A stretch of 40,109 bases of DNA. It comes from Candidatus Anderseniibacteriota bacterium. GTDB lineage: Bacteria > Patescibacteriota > Andersenbacteria > UBA10190. Where the stretch lies: contig JBBEDC010000013.1 of NCBI GenBank assembly GCA_040881505.1, positions 1 through 40,109 of the forward strand. Direction: 5' to 3'. Below, one piece after another: positions 6,634 to 36,935 of this stretch. The position numbers were made by a program, and so were the translations under genes. Under the pieces are notes generated by a model. It was not told the origin of the DNA and made no database searches. It was given only the letters and a program-made list of their open reading frames with translations. Positions within the stretch are counted from its first letter, which is position 1. Each line of letters opens with the position of its first letter.

Positions 6634-7656
6634 ATGGTTGTGGAATACTTCCTCATCAACGCGTTGGCCGTGTTTGTGCTGGTGACTATCTATGTTGCCG
6701 CCACGTCGGTATGGATCGTTCCTGCCGACAAGTACCTGGTCTCATTCTTCCTGCGGGACTACTCAAAAGTGTACGCCCCCCAGGACTACCTGAAGCAACA
6801 GCCAAGGATGGACTGGAAAGGCGCTACCTCAGGGTGGTTCGGTTCGAATGTTGTGATTCTGCTGTACCCATTGTGGGAAGGAATTTATTTTCCCACCACG
6901 ACAATCGTACTGCAGTACCACGCAGCAAGAATCTACACCAAGGATGGTGTGCCGATTTTCGTGAGCTGCACGCTCATCATTCAGCTTGACCCCAAGCTGG
7001 ATAACTTTGTGCGCGTCTTCAATGTCTTTGGAAAGGGTTACGATCTCGCTCGGGAGGAACGGATTTCTTACCGAATCGATCGGGACCAAGAGACCGGAGA
7101 GATCAAGGAGGCTAAATACGACAAGCCAACCCCCTGCATCGCTGGAACGATGCTCGCCTCTACTCAAGATCTTCTCCTGGAGACAATCCGAAGAACCGCC
7201 TCAACAATGACGTGGAAAGATATTTCCGGCAACATTCCCAAGTTTGAGCATAGGATTCGATACGCTCTTGCGGATCCAAATTCTGCATTTGCAAGAGCCG
7301 AAATTCTCGTTCGACAGCCAGGGGATGATGAGAACGCCTATGAAGGGCCTGCCGCACAACGGAACGGAGTGGACATCACGATCCCCGATGTTACTCCCAT
7401 GGATAAGGACTTTCTCAATTCCCTGGCCATCCCAGAAATCGAAAAGAGAAAGGGGGAGGGGGAGGCTAATCGAATCAACGCCATTCGGGAGCAAGTGGTA
7501 AAGCCAGGTGGCCGAGAAGTGTTTCGCAACGAAACGCTGCGAGCAATCGACAGTGTTGACATCTTTGCGACCAACGAGTCAGCAAACGCCATCATCGGGA
7601 GGCTCCTGCAGGGATCAAAGGACAAGAAGACCAAAAAGAAAGGAGAGAAAGAATGA
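6634..7656 (+). CDS. membrane-anchored SPFH/band-7-like protein (GC-rich cassette 2, gene 1)
   Basis: N-terminal TM helix, followed by VWIVPADKYLVSFF ... YPLWEGIYFPTTTIVLQYHAARIYTKDGVPIFVSCTLIIQLDP. This resembles the SPFH core pattern (IV.....V..FG ... P....v.....T.DG..v.vd..v.y.i.dP). C-terminus is charged and helical. The start may instead be the GTG at 6640, given the AAGGAG spacing. The family call is by eye only. Confidence 0.55.
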   Translation: MVVEYFLINALAVFVLVTIYVAATSVWIVPADKYLVSFFLRDYSKVYAPQDYLKQQPRMDWKGATSGWFGSNVVILLYPLWEGIYFPTTTIVLQYHAARIYTKDGVPIFVSCTLIIQLDPKLDNFVRVFNVFGKGYDLAREERISYRIDRDQETGEIKEAKYDKPTPCIAGTMLASTQDLLLETIRRTASTMTWKDISGNIPKFEHRIRYALADPNSAFARAEILVRQPGDDENAYEGPAAQRNGVDITIPDVTPMDKDFLNSLAIPEIEKRKGEGEANRINAIREQVVKPGGREVFRNETLRAIDSVDIFATNESANAIIGRLLQGSKDKKTKKKGEKE

Positions 7657-8801
7657 TCAGCCCTGGCGTTTTGATTCTTGCCGGCCTTGTGGCGACGGGA
7701 ATCGCAGTCTACTGCTACCGGACAAGATCCGTCAGTAGTGCTGACACAGTTCCGCCCTCTGGAGGGACTACGCCCACCGCTGGAGCAGAGAGAGCACCCA
7801 ACACAAAGGATGTGTGGAAACACGCCGTCAAGACACCCGTCTACATCGCTCTTGGAGCCATCTGGCTGCTGGGGGTGTCGATGGCGATAGGGTTTCTCTG
7901 GTACGTGGTCCTGCTCATCGGATGGATGTGGGGGCCACCCTCTCCGGAAACCAAGCCTCCAGTTGTCAGGGTGGCAGCTGCAGACCAAGATAGAGCTGCA
8001 CCAACGGTACAGCCTCCTCAGTTCTCACCCGAGAATGCCGCACGAATAACGCGGATCATGGGGGAGGCGACACCAGGAGTCATTCCAGTTCAAGAGATTC
8101 CAACCGAGATCTCTTTTGCGTACTGGGTGAACGGCAAGGAATGGGGGGCCAACCAGGGAACGGAGGCAAACCTGAAAGGGTTCGATCCAGAAAATAAGTG
8201 GGTTAAGATGGAAATTGACGACTACTCCCCTAGCTACTTCCTCCGGATCAATGATCGGCAAGTACGGGCTTCTTACCCCGAAAGGCTTCAATTCACTGCG
8301 CAGGAGGTTGCTAGCTGGAGCACAATCACCATCGCCTTTCAGGCAACGGGTAATGTTGGACGTGACCCCTTTCGTATCACACTCGAATATGGAGACAACA
8401 GCCTCACATCAACGAGAGTTCGGTTCGCCAACCAGGCAACCACAACTCCTAGCCAGGCAGGCGAAGCGAGCTATGGACTCCTTCCAGATCCGGCTGGTCT
8501 CCGAACCACGCTCTGGGTGGACATCAAGCACCCCGCAACGGATGTAGTGCCACAGGAGAAGCGCCTGTCCCTGTTTGAGAATCAGGAACTTGCCCTTCAG
8601 CACCCTGTGACACTGCAACTACACGGGGACAACGGTGTGGTGGTTAAGAAGCGACTCTACACGGCAGAAACAATGATCTCGCCGGCAGAACTCGCTTCTA
8701 GCACACTGGCCGGGTCTACGGCCATCGAAGTAGTCGTAGATATCCCCGCGCTACCGCAGGGAGCACGCGTCGAAGTCGTTCGCCTCGTGCAGCCAAAGTA
8801 G
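7653..8801 (+). CDS. multi-TM protein with large beta-rich C-terminal domain, unknown function (GC-rich cassette 2, gene 2)
   Basis: ATGA start/stop overlap with the upstream gene. TM helices near aa 4-21 and 61-93, a Pro-rich linker, then ~270 aa with no recognisable motif. Followed directly by a terminator. Confidence 0.7.
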   Translation: MISPGVLILAGLVATGIAVYCYRTRSVSSADTVPPSGGTTPTAGAERAPNTKDVWKHAVKTPVYIALGAIWLLGVSMAIGFLWYVVLLIGWMWGPPSPETKPPVVRVAAADQDRAAPTVQPPQFSPENAARITRIMGEATPGVIPVQEIPTEISFAYWVNGKEWGANQGTEANLKGFDPENKWVKMEIDDYSPSYFLRINDRQVRASYPERLQFTAQEVASWSTITIAFQATGNVGRDPFRITLEYGDNSLTSTRVRFANQATTTPSQAGEASYGLLPDPAGLRTTLWVDIKHPATDVVPQEKRLSLFENQELALQHPVTLQLHGDNGVVVKKRLYTAETMISPAELASSTLAGSTAIEVVVDIPALPQGARVEVVRLVQPK

Positions 8802-8825: not shown

Positions 8826-8864
8826 CCCCAGAAAGGCGTTCGCGCTTTTCTGGGGTTATTTTTT
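8826..8864 (+). terminator. rho-independent terminator
   Basis: CCCCAGAAAGGCG-TTCG-CGCTTTTCTGGGG hairpin followed by TTATTTTTT. Confidence 0.8.
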
Positions 8865-9081
8865 ATAAAACAAGAAGATTAAAAATAGCGGCAGCAAAAG
8901 CCAATCCCGCAATAGCAACGATTAGCTTTAAAATTTTAAACTTCAACACTGTCTGTCGAGCATCGTCCCCAATCGCATAGTTATACAAACTAGCATTACG
9001 GATCAGAATGATTCCCAAGATGAGAACAAGCACCAATACTGTCCCATTGACGATATATATAATTAGGTCTATCGCTGTCAT
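8863..9081 (-). CDS. small two-TM membrane protein
   Basis: AT-rich ORF encoding two hydrophobic helices (IDLIIYIVNGTVLVLVLILGIILI; LKLIVAIAGLAFAAAIFNLLVL). I use the ATG at 9081 because the track start at 9102 is a TTG inside the neighbouring terminator. Confidence 0.4.
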   Translation of the reverse strand: MTAIDLIIYIVNGTVLVLVLILGIILIRNASLYNYAIGDDARQTVLKFKILKLIVAIAGLAFAAAIFNLLVL

Positions 9082-9100
9082 AACTCGATCATACCATACC

Positions 9101-9127
9101 AAAAAGCCGCCTCTCCGGCGGCTTTTT
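9101..9127 (-). terminator. rho-independent terminator ending the pilin-array operon (bidirectional shape)
   Basis: AAAAA-GCCGCC-TCTCC-GGCGGC-TTTTT, located 20 nt downstream of the last pilin-like gene on the minus strand. Confidence 0.8.
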
Positions 9128-9146
9128 GTAAAAGAGATCTTACAAC

Positions 9147-9500
9147 TTACGCAGCATTAATCGCGTTGATAACGAAGCGTACTACTGCTGCTGCTAATCC
9201 AATAACGATTAGACCGATAACAGCATACAGAATAGTGTTTTTCGCCGCATCAGCCGCTGACTCATCGCCCTGTGAGGTTATGTATCGCACACCACCGATG
9301 ACGAGGAAGATAGCAGCTACTAGCGCTGCAAGCATTAAGGCCCAGTTGATAATCGTCTCAACTGCTGTAATGAGATCAGAATCTGCATCACCAGCAAAGT
9401 CGAAGTTGTCACCCTGTAGACCAATAGCAAATGCCTTAGCCGGTGCACTTAACACAAGCATTGGAAGAACGCTGTTTCGAAAAAACTTTTTGATATTCAT
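9147..9500 (-). CDS. VirB2/TrbC-like mini-pilin paralog 1 (T4SS-pilin-like, CPR type)
   Basis: Signal peptide (…LSAPAKAFA), short variable segment, then a conserved two-helix hairpin: IINWALMLAALVAAIFLVIGGVRYITSQGDE...AKNTILYAVIGLIVIGLAAAVV. Confidence 0.75.
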   Translation of the reverse strand: MNIKKFFRNSVLPMLVLSAPAKAFAIGLQGDNFDFAGDADSDLITAVETIINWALMLAALVAAIFLVIGGVRYITSQGDESAADAAKNTILYAVIGLIVIGLAAAVVRFVINAINAA

Positions 9501-9538
9501 ACTCCCTCACCTCCTTCGAATAGACAACGTGACATCCG

Positions 9539-9895
9539 CTACGCAAACGCGATGCCATCGATTACAAAATTAACAATTGCTGCCGACAAACCAATTGCAA
9601 TAAGTCCAATGACTGCATACAAAAGTGTTTTCTTCCCCTTCTCGGCCTGTCCCTCATCTCCAGCTGAGGTTATGAACCACACTCCACCAATGATGATAAA
9701 AATTGCTGCCACTATTGCTGCCAACATCAAGAAAACATTGATGATAATTTGAATGGCTACAATCAAAGGAGTGTCTGCGGTACCAGAAAATGGCACCACC
9801 CTGCTTAGCCCTTGCGCATGTAGGGCCAGGGGTAATAAGAACAGTGAGGCAACTACGCCGTATCTGAGCAATTTGTCCATCATAGAGATAATCAT
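9539..9895 (-). CDS. VirB2/TrbC-like mini-pilin paralog 2
   Basis: Signal peptide (LALHAQG), variable segment, then IINVFLMLAAIVAAIFIIIGGVWFITSAGDEGQAEKGKKTLLYAVIGLIAIGLSAAIVNF. Confidence 0.75.
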   Translation of the reverse strand: MIISMMDKLLRYGVVASLFLLPLALHAQGLSRVVPFSGTADTPLIVAIQIIINVFLMLAAIVAAIFIIIGGVWFITSAGDEGQAEKGKKTLLYAVIGLIAIGLSAAIVNFVIDGIAFA

Positions 9896-9903
9896 ATCAC
9901 CTG

Positions 9904-10281
9904 TTATCCAAATGAAGAAAGCGTAAAGTTCACGATTGCCGCCGATAGACCAATAACGATCAGTCCAATGACAGCATATAGAAGCGTTTTCTTACCTTTA
10001 CTTGCTTGCTGCTCATCTCCAGCTGAGGTTATAAACTGTACGCCTCCAATGACTACAAAGACTCCCGCTACAATACTAACAAGTACTAAGAATACATTAA
10101 TAATATCAGTCAGAACCCCTACAAGATCGTCCCCACAAGCTATATTCCATTTACCACATGCATCATCAGGAACATCATCTAGTTGGGCTGCGGCCGGGAA
10201 AACCGCCAATACAAGCATAGTAAAGGTGGCAATAAAGATTACCATATGTAGGAAACGAAAAGTGTGACGAATAGACTGCAT
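9904..10281 (-). CDS. VirB2/TrbC-like mini-pilin paralog 3
   Basis: Signal peptide (FPAAAQ), variable segment containing CGKWNIAC, then IINVFLVLVSIVAGVFVVIGGVQFITSAGDEQQASKGKKTLLYAVIGLIVIGLSAAIVNF. Confidence 0.75.
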   Translation of the reverse strand: MQSIRHTFRFLHMVIFIATFTMLVLAVFPAAAQLDDVPDDACGKWNIACGDDLVGVLTDIINVFLVLVSIVAGVFVVIGGVQFITSAGDEQQASKGKKTLLYAVIGLIVIGLSAAIVNFTLSSFG

Positions 10282-10286
10282 AGTAT

Positions 10287-10679
10287 CTAGTTTACCGCCC
10301 TAAGGATGAAGTTTACAACGACTGCCGAGAGGCCAATGACAATTAGCCCAATGACAGCATATAGAATAAGATTTTTTGCTTTTTTGGCCTTGTCCTCTTC
10401 TCCGGCAGACGTGAGAAATAGTACACCTCCATAAATCAGTACCGCAGATGCAACAATTGCCACAAAGGAAAGGAAAATCTTAATAATATCTTCAAGAAGC
10501 GTACGGAATGCTGCTCCATCTTCTTCGCCCTCTACGTCACATCGGATTCCCAAGCCTTCGCAATCAGCTGGCTGAAAAGACCCCGCCTCCACTTCGTGCA
10601 GAGGCGCATTTAGCAAAAATCCTCCAAAAACCATGAGTGTCACAAGAAAAAGTATGGTTGTTTTTTTAGCAAACAGCAT
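10287..10679 (-). CDS. VirB2/TrbC-like mini-pilin paralog 4
   Basis: Signal peptide, variable segment containing CEGLGIRC, then conserved IYGGVLFLTSAGEEDKAKKAKNLILYAVIGLIVIGLSAVVVNF. Confidence 0.75.
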   Translation of the reverse strand: MLFAKKTTILFLVTLMVFGGFLLNAPLHEVEAGSFQPADCEGLGIRCDVEGEEDGAAFRTLLEDIIKIFLSFVAIVASAVLIYGGVLFLTSAGEEDKAKKAKNLILYAVIGLIVIGLSAVVVNFILRAVN

Positions 10680-10681
10680 AG

Positions 10682-11062
10682 TTATTCTGCAAAAAATTCA
10701 ACAATCGTATTTACAGCCAATCCGGCTACCCCAATAACAACAAGTCCAATAATAGCAGCGAGAATGAGCTTCTTTGCTTTTTTAGCCTTATCTTCATCAC
10801 CTCCAGAAACAAGATACATCACACCACCAACAATAATTGCAGCAACGGCTAAAATGCTAACAAATGCTAATATAATTCTCACCACAGCACGGATAAAAGC
10901 CTCTGCTTCCGTATATTTTTCTACTCCACTGCCAGTTTCAATCGTATCAACTCTATCGAAACTATCACTAAATGAGACTGCATGAGTAACAGGAATGTGC
11001 GGGGCAAACAACATTAACGTGACAACGCCTCCATTTATAACCCACCGTAGTTTACTCATCAT
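10682..11062 (-). CDS. VirB2/TrbC-like mini-pilin paralog 5
   Basis: Signal peptide, variable segment, then conserved IVGGVMYLVSGGDEDKAKKAKKLILAAIIGLVVIGVAGLAVN. ATGA overlap with paralog 6. Confidence 0.72.
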   Translation of the reverse strand: MMSKLRWVINGGVVTLMLFAPHIPVTHAVSFSDSFDRVDTIETGSGVEKYTEAEAFIRAVVRIILAFVSILAVAAIIVGGVMYLVSGGDEDKAKKAKKLILAAIIGLVVIGVAGLAVNTIVEFFAE

Positions 11063-11385
11063 TCGCCCCCTTCTCCAAGTAGCAATCTTTTCACGATCTC
11101 AATTATTAGGAAGGAAGTACCGACTATGACAAGTCCAATGATTGCAGTAAGAATAATCTTCTTGGCAGTTCCAGTTCTCTTCTCATCTCCAAAAGAAATA
11201 ATATACATCACCCCACCAACGATAAGGGCTAACAGCGCCAGCACAGCTGAAATACCTAGGAGCCAGTCAATGATTCTCGTAAGAAGCGTGATTTCAATAT
11301 CTTTTTCCCCGGCGAGCTTTGCCAGCGTAGCATCAACCTTTGCCGCATCATCTAAGCCACTTTGAAAAAAATCAGTTTTAGCCAT
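11059..11385 (-). CDS. VirB2/TrbC-like mini-pilin paralog 6 (no obvious signal peptide)
   Basis: Conserved IIDWLLGISAVLALLALIVGGVMYIISFGDEKRTGTAKKIILTAIIGLVIVG. I prefer the start at MAKTDFF (11385), which removes the overlap with paralog 7. The N-terminus is hydrophilic, unlike its siblings. Confidence 0.65.
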   Translation of the reverse strand: MAKTDFFQSGLDDAAKVDATLAKLAGEKDIEITLLTRIIDWLLGISAVLALLALIVGGVMYIISFGDEKRTGTAKKIILTAIIGLVIVGTSFLIIEIVKRLLLGEGGE

Positions 11386-11389
11386 AATA

Positions 11390-11743
11390 CTATCCTTCTG
11401 CGGGCCCCGCACCGAGGAACCCACTTACAATAGCAATTAATGCATACGAGGCTATAACGACTATTAGCCCAATAACTGCCCATGTAATAATTTGCTTAGC
11501 CGACTTAACGGACTCTTCCTTGCCAAAAGACACGATAAGCTTTACGCCTCCTGCCACCAAAGCAAACAAGGCCAGTAGCCCAACAAGTCCAAGCAGCCAT
11601 TGAATAATATTAGTAAGGAGCTCTTGAACAGTCTCTATTCCATTGAGAGGGTTTGTTATCCCCGCTGCACTCACAGTAAATGGCAGCGTCCATACGGATA
11701 TTACTGCGGGCAAGAAGACATTACCTTTACTAAATATTCGCAT
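11390..11743 (-). CDS. VirB2/TrbC-like mini-pilin paralog 7
   Basis: Signal peptide (PFTVSAAG), then IIQWLLGLVGLLALFALVAGGVKLIVSFGKEESVKSAKQIITWAVIGLIVV. Its start overlaps the stop of the upstream solute-binding protein gene by 14 nt. Confidence 0.72.
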   Translation of the reverse strand: MRIFSKGNVFLPAVISVWTLPFTVSAAGITNPLNGIETVQELLTNIIQWLLGLVGLLALFALVAGGVKLIVSFGKEESVKSAKQIITWAVIGLIVVIASYALIAIVSGFLGAGPAEG

Positions 11744-13013
11744 TATTCGGTATTAACAACTGAAGCTGGTCCTGAGCGCGACGCAAAGCATCCTTTATAG
11801 TAATAGACCCCGTCACGACCTCGTCTATCATAGCATTAAAAATGGTATCTGTGGCGACGATGTCCACTCTCGGCCATGTACGTGCAATAAGGGATTGATC
11901 TGCGAACACCCCAAGCTCCGGATTGCTTCGCACTGCCTCTATGTTATCCCGTCGAGCCGGTGGAGCGCCTTGTGCTTCATTTATCAGAGGAGCCACAGAA
12001 GTATCTGTCAAAAACCGGACAAACTGCCAAGCCGCAGTTGGTGATTGCGAAGCTGGCGATACAGCAAAAGGCCAATAGTTAGCGAAGGCAACCTGCGTGC
12101 TATCAGCAATCTGCGGTACAGGCGCGATTGCAAAGTTCAACCGAGGATTTTTCGCCTTAATAGTTGAAATGTGGTGAGAATAGTTAAACATCATAGCCGA
12201 CTCCCCTTCTGCAAACGCGTCAATGGAGAAATCCTGAGACAGATCCCAGGTATATACCTTCTTTGATTTGTTAGAAAAGTCGGTGTAGAACGTCAGGGCC
12301 GTCTCGGCTACTTGATTGGCCAGATCAATACGACCATCACCTCGAACAATATCAAGGCCGCTTTGAATCATTAACAGCTGAAGAATATCTCCAGCCCGGT
12401 TTACATTTGAGGCAGTCCCAAGCGTTGCTGCGCTTTGTTCAATCACTCCAAGGCGAGAAACTCGCGTAATACTCTCAGCTGCTCGCTGAAAATCCTGCCA
12501 GGTACGAGGAGGACGAGCAATACTAGCGCCTGACAGGAGGTCGCGATTGTAATACAGCGCGAGAGTATCAACGGAAGTTGGGAGAGCATACACAAATCCA
12601 TCTCGGACAACGTCCTGTGCTACTACGGACACGAATTCGTCCTGTAACTGGCGTACGTTAATGACTTCAGCGGGGGCAGGACTCATAATACCCCGCTTCG
12701 ACTCGACCCACGTGTGGTGAATAACGAATATGTCGGGCCCTCTTCCTTCTGCTAATGCCTCTAGAAGCTCTCTTTCATACGTCGCAACTGAGGCAATCTT
12801 TTTGTATTCAACCGCAATACCCGTCTGTTCTGTGAACGCCTTAACGATAGGGTCCATACTCGCGCTCTCCTGCCATAGACCCCACACAACTAATGCTTGA
12901 GAGGTGCTATCACCTACCCTATTCTGCGGGCGACGACAGCCAAAGCCTAAAACAGAAATAGCGCTGACAACAATCAACAGGGTTAACGCTGCCGTTTTTA
13001 AGCGAGGGCTCAT
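11730..13013 (-). CDS. extracellular solute-binding lipoprotein (ABC family-1, sugar type), orphan
   Basis: 427 aa. Signal peptide with lipobox (VLGFGC). General SBP_bac_1-like pattern (VWGLW..., ...PDIFVIHHTW, ...YALP.SVDTLALYYNRDLL). No permease or ATPase gene lies nearby. Confidence 0.75.
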   Translation of the reverse strand: MSPRLKTAALTLLIVVSAISVLGFGCRRPQNRVGDSTSQALVVWGLWQESASMDPIVKAFTEQTGIAVEYKKIASVATYERELLEALAEGRGPDIFVIHHTWVESKRGIMSPAPAEVINVRQLQDEFVSVVAQDVVRDGFVYALPTSVDTLALYYNRDLLSGASIARPPRTWQDFQRAAESITRVSRLGVIEQSAATLGTASNVNRAGDILQLLMIQSGLDIVRGDGRIDLANQVAETALTFYTDFSNKSKKVYTWDLSQDFSIDAFAEGESAMMFNYSHHISTIKAKNPRLNFAIAPVPQIADSTQVAFANYWPFAVSPASQSPTAAWQFVRFLTDTSVAPLINEAQGAPPARRDNIEAVRSNPELGVFADQSLIARTWPRVDIVATDTIFNAMIDEVVTGSITIKDALRRAQDQLQLLIPNNANI

Positions 13014-13558
13014 GACTTCTGTTTGGATAACACCAGAGCGTAATGGTAGGGGCTCGGTGCGAATTTCTTTGCAATATAGAGACCTACCTCAGAAGCAACG
13101 CGGGTGATTTCCTCTGCTGGAATACGCTGACTAACTGGGGGGCCAAATGGGCTAGCTACAACGTCCCACCCGACGATGACAATATGCCCATTAGCGGCCA
13201 CTACTCGCATGGCCTCGCGTAGCAGTGTTGCGATATCTGACTGGTAAATGATATTCGCAAGTAATACCCAATCAGCTGTATTGTCGGGCAACGAACTTCC
13301 CTTAGGATTCTCTAGGTTCGCTCGAATAACCTGAATAATGGAGTCAACGTTTTCCCGTTTCGATCGACTTTCAGCCTCTGCCAACATGTCAGGCAACACA
13401 TCAATCCCTATCGCTTTCCCATTCTTGCCAACAATATGAGCTGCGGGAACAAGATAAAAACCTGCTCCTGCTCCAAAATGGACTACTGTTTGTTCAGCCC
13501 GCAAACCAACTGTTCGCCAAAACTCTTCGGGCCGAATGAAGGATTGTTCTTCTGTCAT
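13010..13558 (-). CDS. class I SAM-dependent methyltransferase
   Basis: 182 aa. Motif I-like VVHFGAGAGFY, acidic post-I residue (GIDV), and overall Rossmann-MT layout. 4-nt overlap with the downstream SBP gene. Confidence 0.7.
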   Translation of the reverse strand: MTEEQSFIRPEEFWRTVGLRAEQTVVHFGAGAGFYLVPAAHIVGKNGKAIGIDVLPDMLAEAESRSKRENVDSIIQVIRANLENPKGSSLPDNTADWVLLANIIYQSDIATLLREAMRVVAANGHIVIVGWDVVASPFGPPVSQRIPAEEITRVASEVGLYIAKKFAPSPYHYALVLSKQKS

Positions 13559-13616: not shown

Positions 13617-16118
13617 CTACTCTGTTTCAGGAGCCCACGTCGTGAACGTTGCCACCTTGCCGCTCTTGTCAGACGCCTTCATCAAACGCACCCCCTGCGT
13701 TGCTCGTCCTTGCTTGCTAATACCATCGACAGAGATGCGGATAACCTGTCCTTTTTGAGAAACCACCAGGAGGTCAGTTTGCCCTACATCCTCGCCCTTA
13801 ACTAGCGCTGCATTCACGATGGATCCCGTCTTGGAGGTAATACTTGCTGTCTTGATGCCAGATCCGCCTCGCTTCTGCTTGCGATATTCCTTAACTGCCG
13901 TTCTCTTTCCATACCCTTGTTCTGTTACCACAATCACTTCCAAGTCTTTAGCTGCCGTGGGTGCAATAACGTGCATTGCAACAATTTCATCGTCCTTCTT
14001 CAAGCGCATTCCAATTACACCTGCCGCCGTACGTCCCATAGGCCGAACATCCTTTTCGGAAAAACGAACTGCCTGACCGTTTTTTGTTATAAGTATCACC
14101 TCATCCTTACCTGAAGATACTGCAACCCACTCCAGCGCATCTCCGTCTCTCAAGGTAATTGCCTTTAATCCACTGCGGCGAATATTGAGAAAATCTTCAC
14201 GGGGTGTTTTCTTCATTAAACCATTTCGCGTAGCCATCACCAGATATTCTCCATCATCCTCCTTAGCAGGCAGGGCCTGTATAGCCGTCACCTTTTCATC
14301 CGGCGCCATCTCTAAGAAGTTCTGTACTGCATGCCCTTTCGCTGCTCGTGCAGTTGCTGGTATCTCGTATGCCCGAGCGGAGAATACGCGTCCGAGGTTC
14401 GTAAAGAAGAGTAATTGCTTGTGCGTTGTAGTCGCCAAGAAAATATCAACTACATCCTCTTCTTTAGTTGTCATACCCCGGACACCTGTTCCTCCCCGAT
14501 GCTGAACCTGATAGGTGCTGGTTGCCAGTCGCTTAATATATCCTCCCCGGGTAATAGTAACGACGGTTGGATCATCAGGGACAAGGTCTTCTTGAGAAAA
14601 GTCACCTACTGCTTGAGAGAAAACACGCGTTCGGCGCGCGTCACCATAATCATTAATGACTTGAGTGAAATCATCCTTAATCATTCCGAATACCTTCTTA
14701 GGATCTTTAAGAATACTTTCTAACTCTTTAATAAGCTTCTTCTTTTCATTTAACTCATCTTCTACCTTCTTGCGCTCGAGACCAGAGAGTGTCTGTAATC
14801 GCATCTCCAAAATAGCCGTTGCTTGAGCGTCTGACAGTTTAAAGTTCTTACGCAAATTCTGATGAGCAGTTTCCCTATTTTTACTCTTCTTAATTGTAGC
14901 GATAACCTCATCAATATGATCCAGCGCCTTCTTTAGTCCTTCCAATATATGGGCGCGCTCTCGAGCACGATCGAGATCATGCTGCGTACGACGACGAATT
15001 ACTTCCTGTCGATGGTTAATATGTTCATTCAATACCTCCTTGAGTGTGAGAACCTTTGGCTGGCGCCCCTGCTCAACCAGTGCCAGCATGTTTACATGAA
15101 ATGTTTTCTGTAGATCCGTGGCAGAGAAAAGCTGATTCAGTACTTTTTTGGGATACGCATCCTTTTTCAGTTCAACCACAATACGCACGCCATCCTTATC
15201 GGACTCATCACGCAAGTCGCGGATGCCTTCAAGTCGCCCTTCTTTGACTCCTGCAGCAATCTTAGTAATAAGTGTTGCCTTATTTACCAGATACGGGATC
15301 TCACGCACGATAATACGGTGTGCTCCACGATTATCCTCCTCAATATCTGCAAGTGCTCGCATTACGATACTGCCTTTTCCTGTAGCATAGGCCTGTAAGA
15401 TTTCCTGCTTGTTGTATATCGCAGCTCCGGTAGGAAAATCAGGTCCCTGCACATACTTCATGAGGTCCTCCACGGTCGCATCCGGATTATCAATCAAGTG
15501 CATCGATGCCTCACAAATCTCCTTGAGGTTATGAGGGGGAACGTTTGTCGCCATCCCCACCGCAATACCGACTGTTCCATTAAGTAAGAATTGTGGTATC
15601 CGACTTGGCAAGACAACGGGCTCCTGGCGGGTTCCATCATAGTTATCAGCGAAGTTTACGGTTCCCTTTTCAATATCAAATAGCATCTCGTCCGCAATCT
15701 TGGATAGGCGAGACTCGGTATATCGCATCGCGGCTGGAGAGTCCCCATCGAGACTACCCCAGTTTCCTTGACCGTCGATAAGGGGGTAACGCAGAGAAAA
15801 GTCTTGCACCAAACGAGCTAAAGCATCATATACTGCTAAATCCCCATGGGGATGATATCGCCCCAACACTTCACCGACGACGTTGGCAGACTTACGCAAC
15901 TTTGCAGTGGAACGTAATCCTTGTCGCCACATCACATACAAGATACGCCGCGCTACTGGTTTAAGTCCGTCTCGAACATCCGGCAATGCGCGAGATACGA
16001 TAACGCTCATCGCATAGTCCAGATAGCTTTTCTGGATTTCATCGGATAGGTTCTGATCGATTAAGCGACCAATAGTATCAGTTCGCTTCTCGTCAAAATT
16101 TGTTATTTTCTTTGCCAT
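13617..16118 (-). CDS. gyrA: DNA gyrase subunit A
   Basis: 833 aa. [18 protein letters not shown], the AAMRYTE catalytic-Tyr motif, and C-terminal beta-pinwheel repeats. Confidence 0.97.
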
Positions 16119-31048: not shown

Positions 31049-31330
31049 ATGGCTAATATGAAGCGTACCCAAATTTACTTGCCAGAACACATTCATCGCC
31101 GTCTCAAGATAGAGGCGAAGCGCCGTAAGTGCTCTATGGCTGACGTGGTGCGGGAAAGCGTTGAAAAGGACTTGAGTAACCCTAAAAAATACAAAGGAGC
31201 TGACGTGATGATGGATATGCTGGCAGATGCGGAGCGTCTAGAAAAGGATTATCCAACACCACCCGATGCGCCCACCGACCTTGCAGAAAACCACGACTAT
31301 TACCTATATGGCAAAGGACGTATTGAATGA
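31049..31330 (+). CDS. ribbon-helix-helix (CopG/VapB-like) antitoxin
   Basis: The N-terminus KRTQIYLPEHIHRRLKIEAKRRKCSMADVVRESVEK is a typical RHH. ATGA overlap with the downstream PIN gene. Confidence 0.8.
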   Translation: MANMKRTQIYLPEHIHRRLKIEAKRRKCSMADVVRESVEKDLSNPKKYKGADVMMDMLADAERLEKDYPTPPDAPTDLAENHDYYLYGKGRIE

Positions 31331-31740
31331 GCGTGTTCGTCGACACTTCTGCGTTTGTTGCTCTGTACTATCGTCATGATGCACATGCAAAATCAGCTAA
31401 GCGGGTTATCGAGCACCTTCAGCAGCACAATACCCCTCTCGTAACCAGTAATTATATTATCGCTGAGTCGTTAACTGTTATTTCACAACGAGCAGGCAAA
31501 AAACAAGCCGTATCTTTTGGGGAGTATATGGTAAACGATGACTTCCTGACTCTTAGAATTGGCAAATCAACGGAGCAACGCGCTTTTATACTGTTTTCCG
31601 AGCTTGCTCAGAAGGATGTCAGCTTTGTTGATTGCACCAGCTTTATTCTCTGCAAAGATCTTGGGATTACTCAAGTATTTTCATTCGACCAACACTTTGC
31701 AAAACAAGGGTTTAAACTACTGAAACCTAAGAAGGGTTAG
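31327..31740 (+). CDS. vapC: PIN-domain ribonuclease toxin
   Basis: 137 aa. VFVDTSAFVAL N-terminal acidic motif, later acidic residues (IIAES..., SFVDC..., FDQHF) as in VapC. Confidence 0.85.
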   Translation: MSVFVDTSAFVALYYRHDAHAKSAKRVIEHLQQHNTPLVTSNYIIAESLTVISQRAGKKQAVSFGEYMVNDDFLTLRIGKSTEQRAFILFSELAQKDVSFVDCTSFILCKDLGITQVFSFDQHFAKQGFKLLKPKKG

Positions 31741-36624: not shown

Positions 36625-36935
36625 TGGTGCCACGGGTCAGAATCGAACTGACAACGCCAGCCTCTTCCATAATATAAGGCTAATGGACTATATCATCACC
36701 CACTACAAGCAAGACGCTTGGGTGGGGCTGGGCGCTTCCACTGCAACTGTTGCAATGTACTCCCCGAAGGGATAGTCTCTACACCTTCCTAAATCTGTTT
36801 TCTAAAACAGGTTTAGGCTTGGCTCGGGATTACCTGGCGTAAAGGTTTCCCCGAATTCACCCAGTTTTTTACCACCTGTTACCAGATGGGGCCCCGAAGA
36901 TTCAGGGCTGCGCTCTACCATTGAGCTACCGTGGC
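36625..36935 (-). tRNA. tRNA-Phe(GAA) interrupted by a group I intron (exons 36935-36904 and 36667-36625; CCA encoded)
   Basis: 5' exon is GCCACGG-TA-GCTC-AATGGTA-GAGC-G-CAGCC-CT. 3' exon is GAAGA-GGCTG-GCGTT-GTCAG-TTCGATT-CTGAC-CCGTGGC-A-CCA. Joined, they give a canonical cloverleaf with anticodon loop CTGAAGA. Confidence 0.85.
36668..36903 (-). ncRNA. group I intron, IC3-like, ORF-less (~236 nt)
   Basis: P1 pairs exon GCCCU with intron GGGGC, giving U.G at the 5' splice site. The intron ends in G (..UUAUG). P2 is CCATCTG-GTAA-CAGGTGG with a GNRA loop. Core motifs GAATTCGGGGAAACC (36858-36844), CCCGAGCCAAGCC (36828-36816) and GAAGGTGTAGAGACTA (36788-36773) closely match my recollection of the Azoarcus tRNA-Ile intron core. 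P8 carries a TTCG tetraloop. Confidence 0.8.

Follow-up and report, generated by a model that had tools for sequence, protein, structure and literature searches.

Introduction

Tandem arrays of small pilin genes are known from the Patescibacteria and are ordinary for this phylum. In Saccharibacteria, arrays of small Sec-secreted proteins beside type IV secretion system (T4SS) genes were noted in 2020 (PMC7427843), and in 2023 the series of pilins within the S. epibionticum T4SS cluster was shown to be essential (PMC10633639). A 2025 survey counted 441 arrays of 2–11 VirB2-like genes in 383 assemblies, with a mean identity of 25%, and placed pilin genes near virB4 in only 1135 of the 1948 VirB4-positive assemblies (PMC12102498). 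In cultures enriched in Patescibacteria, T4SS pilin genes rank with the most strongly expressed genes of unknown function (PMC10936435). A 2025 review treated a possible pilus in such monoderms as an open and exciting point, and reviews speculate on a conduit that takes up host molecules (PMC12857230). Here we describe an array of this kind on contig JBBEDC010000013.1, a chromosome fragment of a Candidatus Andersenbacteria bacterium that originates from sediment metagenomes. The 40,109-nt stretch analysed (hereafter, the window) is the whole source contig. It carries seven tandem pilin-like genes behind the genes of a methyltransferase (MT) and of a solute-binding protein (SBP). The initial annotation overstated the novelty of the array, since such arrays and what they build have already been discussed (PMC7427843, PMC10633639, PMC12102498, PMC12857230). 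What appears to be new, as far as checked, is the conserved coupling of the pilin genes to a putative sugar-binding lipoprotein; full-text literature searches found no description of an SBP–pilin context. In our best reading, the locus is the Andersenbacteria/Paceibacteria form of the Patescibacterial T4SS pilin array.

The window array has PF18895 (T4SS_pilin) in common with the described Patescibacterial arrays (S. epibionticum ML1 SEML1_0006–0019 and the 'Sec-secreted array' of N. lyticus TM7x). As in those arrays, the genes are tandem, small and divergent, encode signal peptides and a two-helix hairpin, and lie on the chromosome with no relaxase nearby. However, in the Saccharibacteria loci that we sampled, the pilins stand beside virB4, TraC/TrsD-like and PrgI genes (pilin matches in 68 of 81 VirB4 loci), and these 81 loci have no homologue of the SBP, MT or gyrA. 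The window array, on the other hand, is detached from T4SS genes, is part of a gyrA–MT–SBP–pilin block and is coupled to the SBP.

The window pilins resemble VirB2/TrbC/TraA (PF04956) in size, leader, two hydrophobic helices and short charged loop, but they lack an adjacent VirB1, VirB3–B11, cyclase or acetylase partner, and are seven paralogues instead of one. Tandemly amplified and diverged T4SS pilins also occur in other host-dependent bacteria, as the VirB2 arrays of Bartonella and Anaplasma phagocytophilum (summarised in PMC12102498). Those arrays are thought to serve antigenic variation through alternative use, whereas the orthology, coupling and fusions described below point to joint use of the window genes.

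Like the SBPs of MalE-type importers, the window SBP is of the SBP_bac_1 fold family and has a lipoprotein-type leader and invariant aromatic residues as in sugar binders. Unlike them it is coupled to pilins, and no MalFGK-type partner was found in the window or among the sampled neighbours. PrgZ/TraC, SBP lipoproteins on enterococcal conjugative plasmids, provide a functional analogy only. PrgZ demonstrates that monoderm conjugation can make use of an SBP lipoprotein, but it binds peptides, belongs to another SBP family and has no pilin linkage.

Results

The MT–SBP–pilin gene run

The MT, the SBP and the seven small genes (108–130 aa) lie head to tail, all on the minus strand, in the list of open reading frames (ORFs). 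The features of the run are the following.

13617–16118, minus strand: gyrA, 833 aa, upstream neighbour of MT
13010–13558, minus strand: MT, methyltransferase gene, 182 aa
11730–13013, minus strand: SBP gene, 427 aa
11390–11743, minus strand: pilin 1, 117 aa, signal peptide ..VSA/AG
11059–11385, minus strand: pilin 2, 108 aa from the ATG at 11385; an alternative upstream GTG would extend it to 11424
10682–11062, minus strand: pilin 3, 126 aa, signal peptide
10287–10679, minus strand: pilin 4, 130 aa, signal peptide, C-x6-C loop
9904–10281, minus strand: pilin 5, 125 aa, signal peptide ..AAA/QL, C-x6-C loop
9539–9895, minus strand: pilin 6, 118 aa, signal peptide ..LHA/QG
9147–9500, minus strand: pilin 7, last gene of the array, 117 aa, signal peptide
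about 9101–9127, minus strand: intrinsic terminator hairpin that closes the array

The junctions from MT to pilin 7 are, in order, −4, −14, +4, −4, +2, +5, +8 and +38 nt. The MT stop overlaps the SBP start by 4 nt, the SBP stop overlaps the pilin 1 start by 14 nt and the pilin 2 stop overlaps the pilin 3 start by 4 nt. The first two of these overlaps had been proposed by the initial annotation and both were found, the second with its extent corrected to 14 nt. The +4 junction between pilins 1 and 2 assumes the ATG at 11385, which is preceded by the Shine–Dalgarno sequence AGAAGGA; with the upstream GTG start it becomes −35. The strongest Shine–Dalgarno sequence of the array, GAAGGAGGTGA, belongs to pilin 7.

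There are no terminators or promoter-sized gaps between the array genes. The single terminator that had been placed at 9101–9127 is real: a GC-rich hairpin is followed by a T-run, with a folding energy of −22.1 kcal/mol (z = −4.7; 0 of 200 shuffles as stable). It escaped a simple consensus scan, probably owing to pairing between the A and T runs on its flanks, which lengthens the stem. Because the genes overlap or are separated by at most 38 nt and end at a single strong terminator, the seven PF18895 paralogues are predicted to be co-transcribed and largely translationally coupled. The terminator scan gave no terminator-like site in the 58-nt gap between gyrA and MT, so the transcription unit may begin further upstream; the co-directional cluster may begin around 17138, and gyrA may be co-transcribed. 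The earlier picture of a minus-strand MT–SBP–seven-gene run with overlaps or short gaps and a terminator was thus confirmed overall. Its tight coupling stood, and the extent given to the operon needs revision, with the possible upstream start and with a conserved eighth gene that follows the terminator (see below).

Coupling of the array to the SBP is conserved

We compared 94 distinct loci with an SBP orthologue, nearly all from species-representative genomes, that span Andersenbacteria, Yanofsky-, Portnoy- and Terrybacteria and other Paceibacteria; GTDB species genomes contain 533 SBP relatives in all. In 85 of 89 informative loci (distinct species), the SBP is followed by pilin genes in the same orientation. 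No more than 200 nt separate the SBP stop from the first pilin in 72 loci, and in 52 the distance is at most 10 nt or the genes overlap. The gene directly upstream of the SBP is MT in 82 of 87 loci, and in 70 of 73 gyrA also lies upstream in the same orientation. The MT–SBP–pilin order is therefore conserved in related genomes. The arrays range from 2 to 8 genes and from 2 to 11 hairpin modules. This SBP-coupled layout seems to be specific to the clade, the same pilin family thus having two layouts.

The SBP is a member of SBP_bac_1 (PF01547; E 1.5e-34), while its NCBIfam MalE match (E 3e-20) is below the cut-off. Its best natural PDB matches are maltose/trehalose-binding proteins (E about 1e-16), above which rank two engineered receptor fusions, and many of its aromatic residues are invariant. 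The closest homologues are from Candidatus Andersenbacteria. An N-terminal h-region is followed, within residues 20–27, by L-T-G-F-G-C-R, which recurs in about 116 of the 120 closest homologues. Although this is not a textbook lipobox, its near-invariance points to lipid anchoring, and the SBP is probably a lipoprotein. L-T-G-F-G-C-R may be a clade-specific lipobox variant. MT is a class I S-adenosylmethionine-dependent enzyme by its Pfam matches (Methyltransf_11/31/25, E about 1e-11), has no signal peptide or transmembrane (TM) segment and is predicted to be cytoplasmic. NCBIfam gave only distant ArsM/UbiE-like matches, far below the cut-off, and no close named relative.

It is conceivable that the SBP and the array are neighbours without a shared function, that is, a stable housekeeping block (MBL-fold gene, gyrA, MT and SBP) adjoins the array and the SBP serves an ordinary ABC importer elsewhere. 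We regard this as unlikely. The conservation of gyrA, for which no pilin link is plausible, would fit it, as would the preservation of the wider order of ClpP, trigger factor, NusA, S1, MBL and gyrA in the related locus L022 and the resemblance of the SBP to a normal sugar-binding protein. However, start/stop overlaps usually mark co-translated partners, and the SBP and first pilin genes repeatedly overlap in this way in lineages whose SBPs are only about 40% identical. The content of the array varies (2–11 modules) but its position behind the SBP does not. Moreover, the absence of SBP homologues from all the 81 Saccharibacteria T4SS loci makes the linkage clade-specific, which argues for a clade-specific role.

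The seven small proteins belong to the T4SS_pilin family

All seven small proteins scored above the PF18895 cut-off of 26.6 bits, with 35.6–49.4 bits and E-values of 1e-8 to 5e-13 (42.5, 35.9, 35.6, 39.9, 48.3, 38.3 and 49.4 bits for pilins 1–7). Membership in T4SS_pilin, a family common in the candidate phyla radiation, had been proposed earlier and was borne out by this search. The paralogues are mutually 26–52% identical, and the conserved hairpin motif described for them, ..GGV...S.G.E....K....A.IGL.., is real, with 13 invariant columns in the seven-protein alignment. Hydropathy and alignment show a leader, two hydrophobic helices and a short charged loop. A signal peptide had been taken as common to all seven. 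In six of them a typical leader precedes an A-x-A-type cleavage site, but by hydropathy the N-terminus of pilin 2 is hydrophilic and lacks a signal peptide, as does that of its orthologue in the sister species L002. Cys40 and Cys47 of pilin 4 form a C-x6-C loop in the variable N-terminal part, which is also present in the related loci L002, L003 and L004. The recurrence of such loops (pilins 4 and 5) in relatives fits an extracellular location of the N-terminal segment. In an AF2 model of pilin 7 built from the seven-paralogue alignment, residues 39–75 and 80–116 form a two-helix hairpin (mean pLDDT 71.6).

Three observations tie the family to type IV secretion. Firstly, residues about 36–117 of pilin 7 are 45–48% identical to pilins of the Saccharibacteria loci L184–L186, of which L185 and L186 also encode VirB4, a TraC/TrsD-like protein, PrgI and a large (899-aa-type) membrane protein. 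The genome scan with pilin 7 returned five loci, none from Andersenbacteria. Secondly, all seven hairpins match NF045849, the 'pilin-like conjugal transfer protein' of Mycoplasma integrative and conjugative elements (Mbov_0395 family), with 23–37 bits and E-values of 2e-9 to 4e-5 across the hairpin; none reaches its 40-bit cut-off. The Mbov_0395 protein is encoded by a single-copy gene on a mobile element. These matches agree with the relationship that has been reported between the Patescibacterial T4SS and the monoderm MPF-FATA class. Thirdly, some of the relatives pass the TrbC/VirB2 (PF04956) threshold (e.g. 29.1 bits), and many homologues have precomputed PF04956 matches.

Orthology and constraint within the array

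In L002, the seven pilins and an eighth gene behind the terminator have ordered one-to-one orthologues at the same positions. The identities are 61, 54, 42, 44, 64, 59 and 77% for pilins 1–7 and 61% for the eighth gene, compared to 76–77% for the SBP and 78% for MT. Throughout the genes, MT included, the proportion of nonsynonymous differences (pN) is far below that of synonymous differences (pS), the latter being saturated. The N-terminal parts of the pilins evolve faster than the hairpins. The ordered one-to-one orthology together with the low pN indicates that the seven paralogues are not redundant.

Among the five Andersenbacteria relatives that we examined (L003, L004, L022, L025 and L030), a gene of the pilin 1 type is always the first of the array. 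A gene of the pilin 7 type is the last in four of them but not in L022, whose array has three genes. In the middle, the arrays have grown, contracted or undergone fusion (3 to 11 modules). Pilin 7 has both the strongest ribosome-binding site and the highest conservation, which makes it the candidate major subunit.

The eighth gene, which lies 3' of the array terminator, is degenerate and pilin-like.

8863–9081 (ATG at 9081), minus strand: eighth, degenerate pilin-like gene, 72 aa
8824–8857: bidirectional terminator of the eighth gene, from the terminator scan

Its product has two TM helices, a GDD loop and no signal peptide, and matches PF18895 weakly (E 0.02, 15.4 bits). Orthologues occupy the same position in L002, L004, L022 and L025, with pN of 0.27 against pS of 0.77.

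Fused and decorated pilins in relatives

In several relatives, one ORF comprises two, three or four hairpin modules preceded by a single leader; two-module proteins are numerous.

L003, 11723–12871: pilin-module fusion, four modules
L030, 10809–12053: pilin-module fusion
L004, 12789–13613: pilin-module fusion

Fusions also include the proteins P0126, P0130, P0132, P0133, P0141, P0143, P0188, P0203, P0221 and P0222. Such fusions keep an N-out/C-out topology. Fusion of genes is a classical sign that the fused parts act side by side. The T4SS literature that we examined does not mention such polypilins. The fusion junctions have small-residue motifs, which might be signal-peptidase sites.

In Paceibacteria outside the Andersenbacteria, the first gene after the SBP encodes a hairpin with a Cys-rich C-terminal ectodomain of 170–250 aa that has no Pfam match. 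The second encodes an ectodomain of 250–300 aa, a Gly-rich linker and a C-terminal hairpin.

L007, 11293–13477: ectodomain pilins
L015, 5356–7358: ectodomain pilins
L019, 2378–4086: ectodomain pilins
L020, 11219–12948: ectodomain pilins
L021, 11347–13690: ectodomain pilins
L016, 11216–13831: ectodomain pilins

The first array gene of L016 has four PKD domains and a PA14 domain. Adhesin-type ectodomains of this kind fit a surface organelle with adhesive parts. An LAS/M15-type peptidase domain was suspected in the C-terminal extension of the first gene of other Paceibacteria, but this was a guess for which Pfam gave no support. Taken together, the ordered orthology, the fusions of 2–4 modules and the adhesin-type domains suggest that the paralogues work together and are not spare copies.

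Probable location of the secretion machine

In a published Table S1, VirB4 is marked present for five of seven operon-carrying genomes (L003, L005, L016, L073 and L086). The presence of VirB4 elsewhere in the genome is judged from these relatives, the window being the whole source contig. These calls make it probable that the apparatus is an ordinary Patescibacterial T4SS whose genes lie elsewhere. The initial annotation had posed the missing apparatus as a puzzle; it was correct that the window has no T4SS machinery, but the puzzle was overstated in view of these VirB4 calls. Its statement that machinery is absent from 25 kb on either side was incorrect, as one flank is only about 9 kb long.

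A genome scan with a Saccharibacteria VirB4 (L103) gave only Saccharibacteria matches, all of at least 82% identity. Among 90 downstream neighbours in 20 loci, the reported families include no VirB4-type protein and no ABC permease or ATPase. A Walker A motif is absent from the larger of these neighbours, except in a truncated ORF at the far end of L002 that is ClpB-like by position.

Two genes of the window, at 6634–7656 and 7653–8801 (plus strand), were considered as hidden parts of a T4SS and rejected; they have no Pfam match, are on the opposite strand and are conserved only in the closest relatives, L002 and L025. These overlapping genes are convergent with the array and encode proteins with N-terminal hydrophobic segments. 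In a separate locus, L187 (11175–14237; CAZJXP010000001.1, 969 kb), a 1020-aa ORF that matches both TraC-like proteins and VirB4 lies beside a single pilin gene. The label of CAZJXP010000001.1, Methanosarcinales archaeon, looks doubtful.

Other features of the window and of related loci

The housekeeping genes of the window are those of a ClpB/C-type ATPase, gyrA, S1, NusA, an H+-pyrophosphatase, trigger factor, ClpP and RNase Y. A tRNA-Phe(GAA) gene (36625–36935, minus strand) adjoins tRNA-Val and tRNA-Gly genes; a group I intron of 236 nt (RF00028, 62.3 bits; intron option of ARAGORN) splits its anticodon loop. A PIN-domain protein (31327–31740, plus strand; E 1.5e-12) is possibly the toxin of a toxin–antitoxin pair. 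In several Paceibacteria (L005, L008, L018 and L020) the gyrA ORFs are 1253–1662 aa long, 400–800 aa beyond the 833 aa of the window gene, which suggests insertions, e.g. inteins.

Discussion

We propose, at about even confidence, that the window encodes jointly expressed, non-redundant T4SS pilins which a machine encoded elsewhere assembles into a surface structure of mixed composition, to which the SBP would be a conserved accessory. Six of the pilins would be exported by Sec and trimmed by signal peptidase, and one would insert without a leader. Each would then form an N-out/C-out membrane hairpin with its short charged loop in the cytoplasm. A T4SS of the VirB4/TrsD/VirB3/VirB6 type, encoded elsewhere on the chromosome, would draw on this membrane pool of pilins for a mixed pilus-like structure that it would build where the bacterium touches its host cell. 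Pilin 7 would likely be the major subunit, and pilin 1 the subunit tied to the SBP. The SBP, made from the same message, would most likely bind, at the base of this structure, a saccharide or a glycan of the host surface. The SBP–pilin link itself is a conserved gene linkage, from which we infer the accessory role. A heteropolymeric fibre or an uptake/attachment organelle, as the initial annotation had suggested, is consistent with the ordered orthology and with the natural fusions.

Several results weigh against this proposal. The first concern the pilins themselves, for which a similarity to VirB2/TrbC had been claimed. None of the seven reaches the PF04956 cut-off of 27.9 bits (best 24.6 for pilin 5, then 20.7 and 17.9), four have no match at all, and the match of pilin 2 to TrbC (E 5e-4) is sub-threshold. 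An hhalign comparison of the seven-paralogue profile with four Agrobacterium-type VirB2/TrbC proteins gave a probability of 1.3% over 12 columns, both profiles being shallow. Foldseek against the PDB found no match with E < 1 and only generic hairpins at the top (ATP synthase subunit c), the fold being too simple to discriminate, and a sequence profile search of the PDB with the pilins gave nothing meaningful. A tblastn search of 72,556 plasmids with pilin 5 had no match. The claimed similarity was thus not upheld, and by sequence we assign the window genes to PF18895 and to the pilin group of the Patescibacterial T4SS, without counting them as demonstrated VirB2/TrbC members. The others concern the machine and the context. 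In Pfam scans, the larger ORFs of the window matched no VirB4, VirB6 or VirD4 family. VirB4, TraC-like, PrgI and the two large proteins of the Saccharibacteria clusters were found neither in the window nor within about 8–10 kb in 101 related loci, in a search with Saccharibacteria queries that divergent proteins may escape. For two operon-carrying draft genomes, L008 and L090, Table S1 marks VirB4 as absent. A look-up of RNA runs for the organism gave only three sediment-metagenome runs, tagged 'DNA?'. As gyrA is also conserved in the block, the synteny may partly reflect a generally stable gene order. Finally, the pilus of the Patescibacterial T4SS has been described only as a possibility (PMC12857230).

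Some of the same results would suit a device independent of any T4SS, in which a hetero-oligomer of pilin-like hairpins, kept in the membrane or shaped into a short conduit, is the transmembrane partner of the MalE-like lipoprotein in a new kind of uptake or sensing of host-derived saccharides. The first pilin gene abuts or overlaps the SBP gene in 52 of 89 loci (gap of at most 10 nt), no T4SS gene was detected near the 101 related loci and two operon-carrying drafts are listed without VirB4. The fused forms, with 4–8 TM helices, resemble polytopic membrane proteins, and one paralogue has no leader peptide. Nor did the Pfam scans of the 40-kb window, or the families of the 90 neighbours in 20 loci, include an ABC permease or ATPase that the SBP could serve. 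Nevertheless, the window hairpins are homologous to pilins inside Saccharibacteria T4SS clusters, the operon has no energy-coupling component and we know of no precedent for an SBP-fed transporter made of pilin hairpins. The adhesin-like ectodomains of relatives fit a surface structure better, and VirB4 is present in most of the operon-carrying genomes checked. We therefore consider such a device rather improbable. A distinctly improbable variant is a saccharide-capture device without a T4SS ATPase, in which mixed and fused hairpins would form a membrane or pilus conduit for the cargo of the SBP; if true, the epibiont–host interface would have a new class of SBP-dependent uptake.

Use of the array as a store of alternative subunits, with one major pilin at a time for antigenic or host-range variation as proposed for Bartonella and Anaplasma, has been offered for Patescibacteria (PMC12102498) and would suit the variability of the mature N-terminal segments and the array sizes of related species (3, 7 and 8–11 modules), but it is highly improbable here, as the seven genes keep ordered one-to-one orthologues in L002 at an SBP identity of 76–77%, have no separate promoter-sized gaps or terminators between them, are coupled so tightly that joint expression is implied, and in relatives are covalently fused, so that several modules are made together.

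The coupling of a sugar-type SBP to the pilin genes, which extends over hundreds of species, gives the speculation on uptake of host molecules a concrete and expressible handle. The ligand of the SBP would point to what the pilin structure handles.

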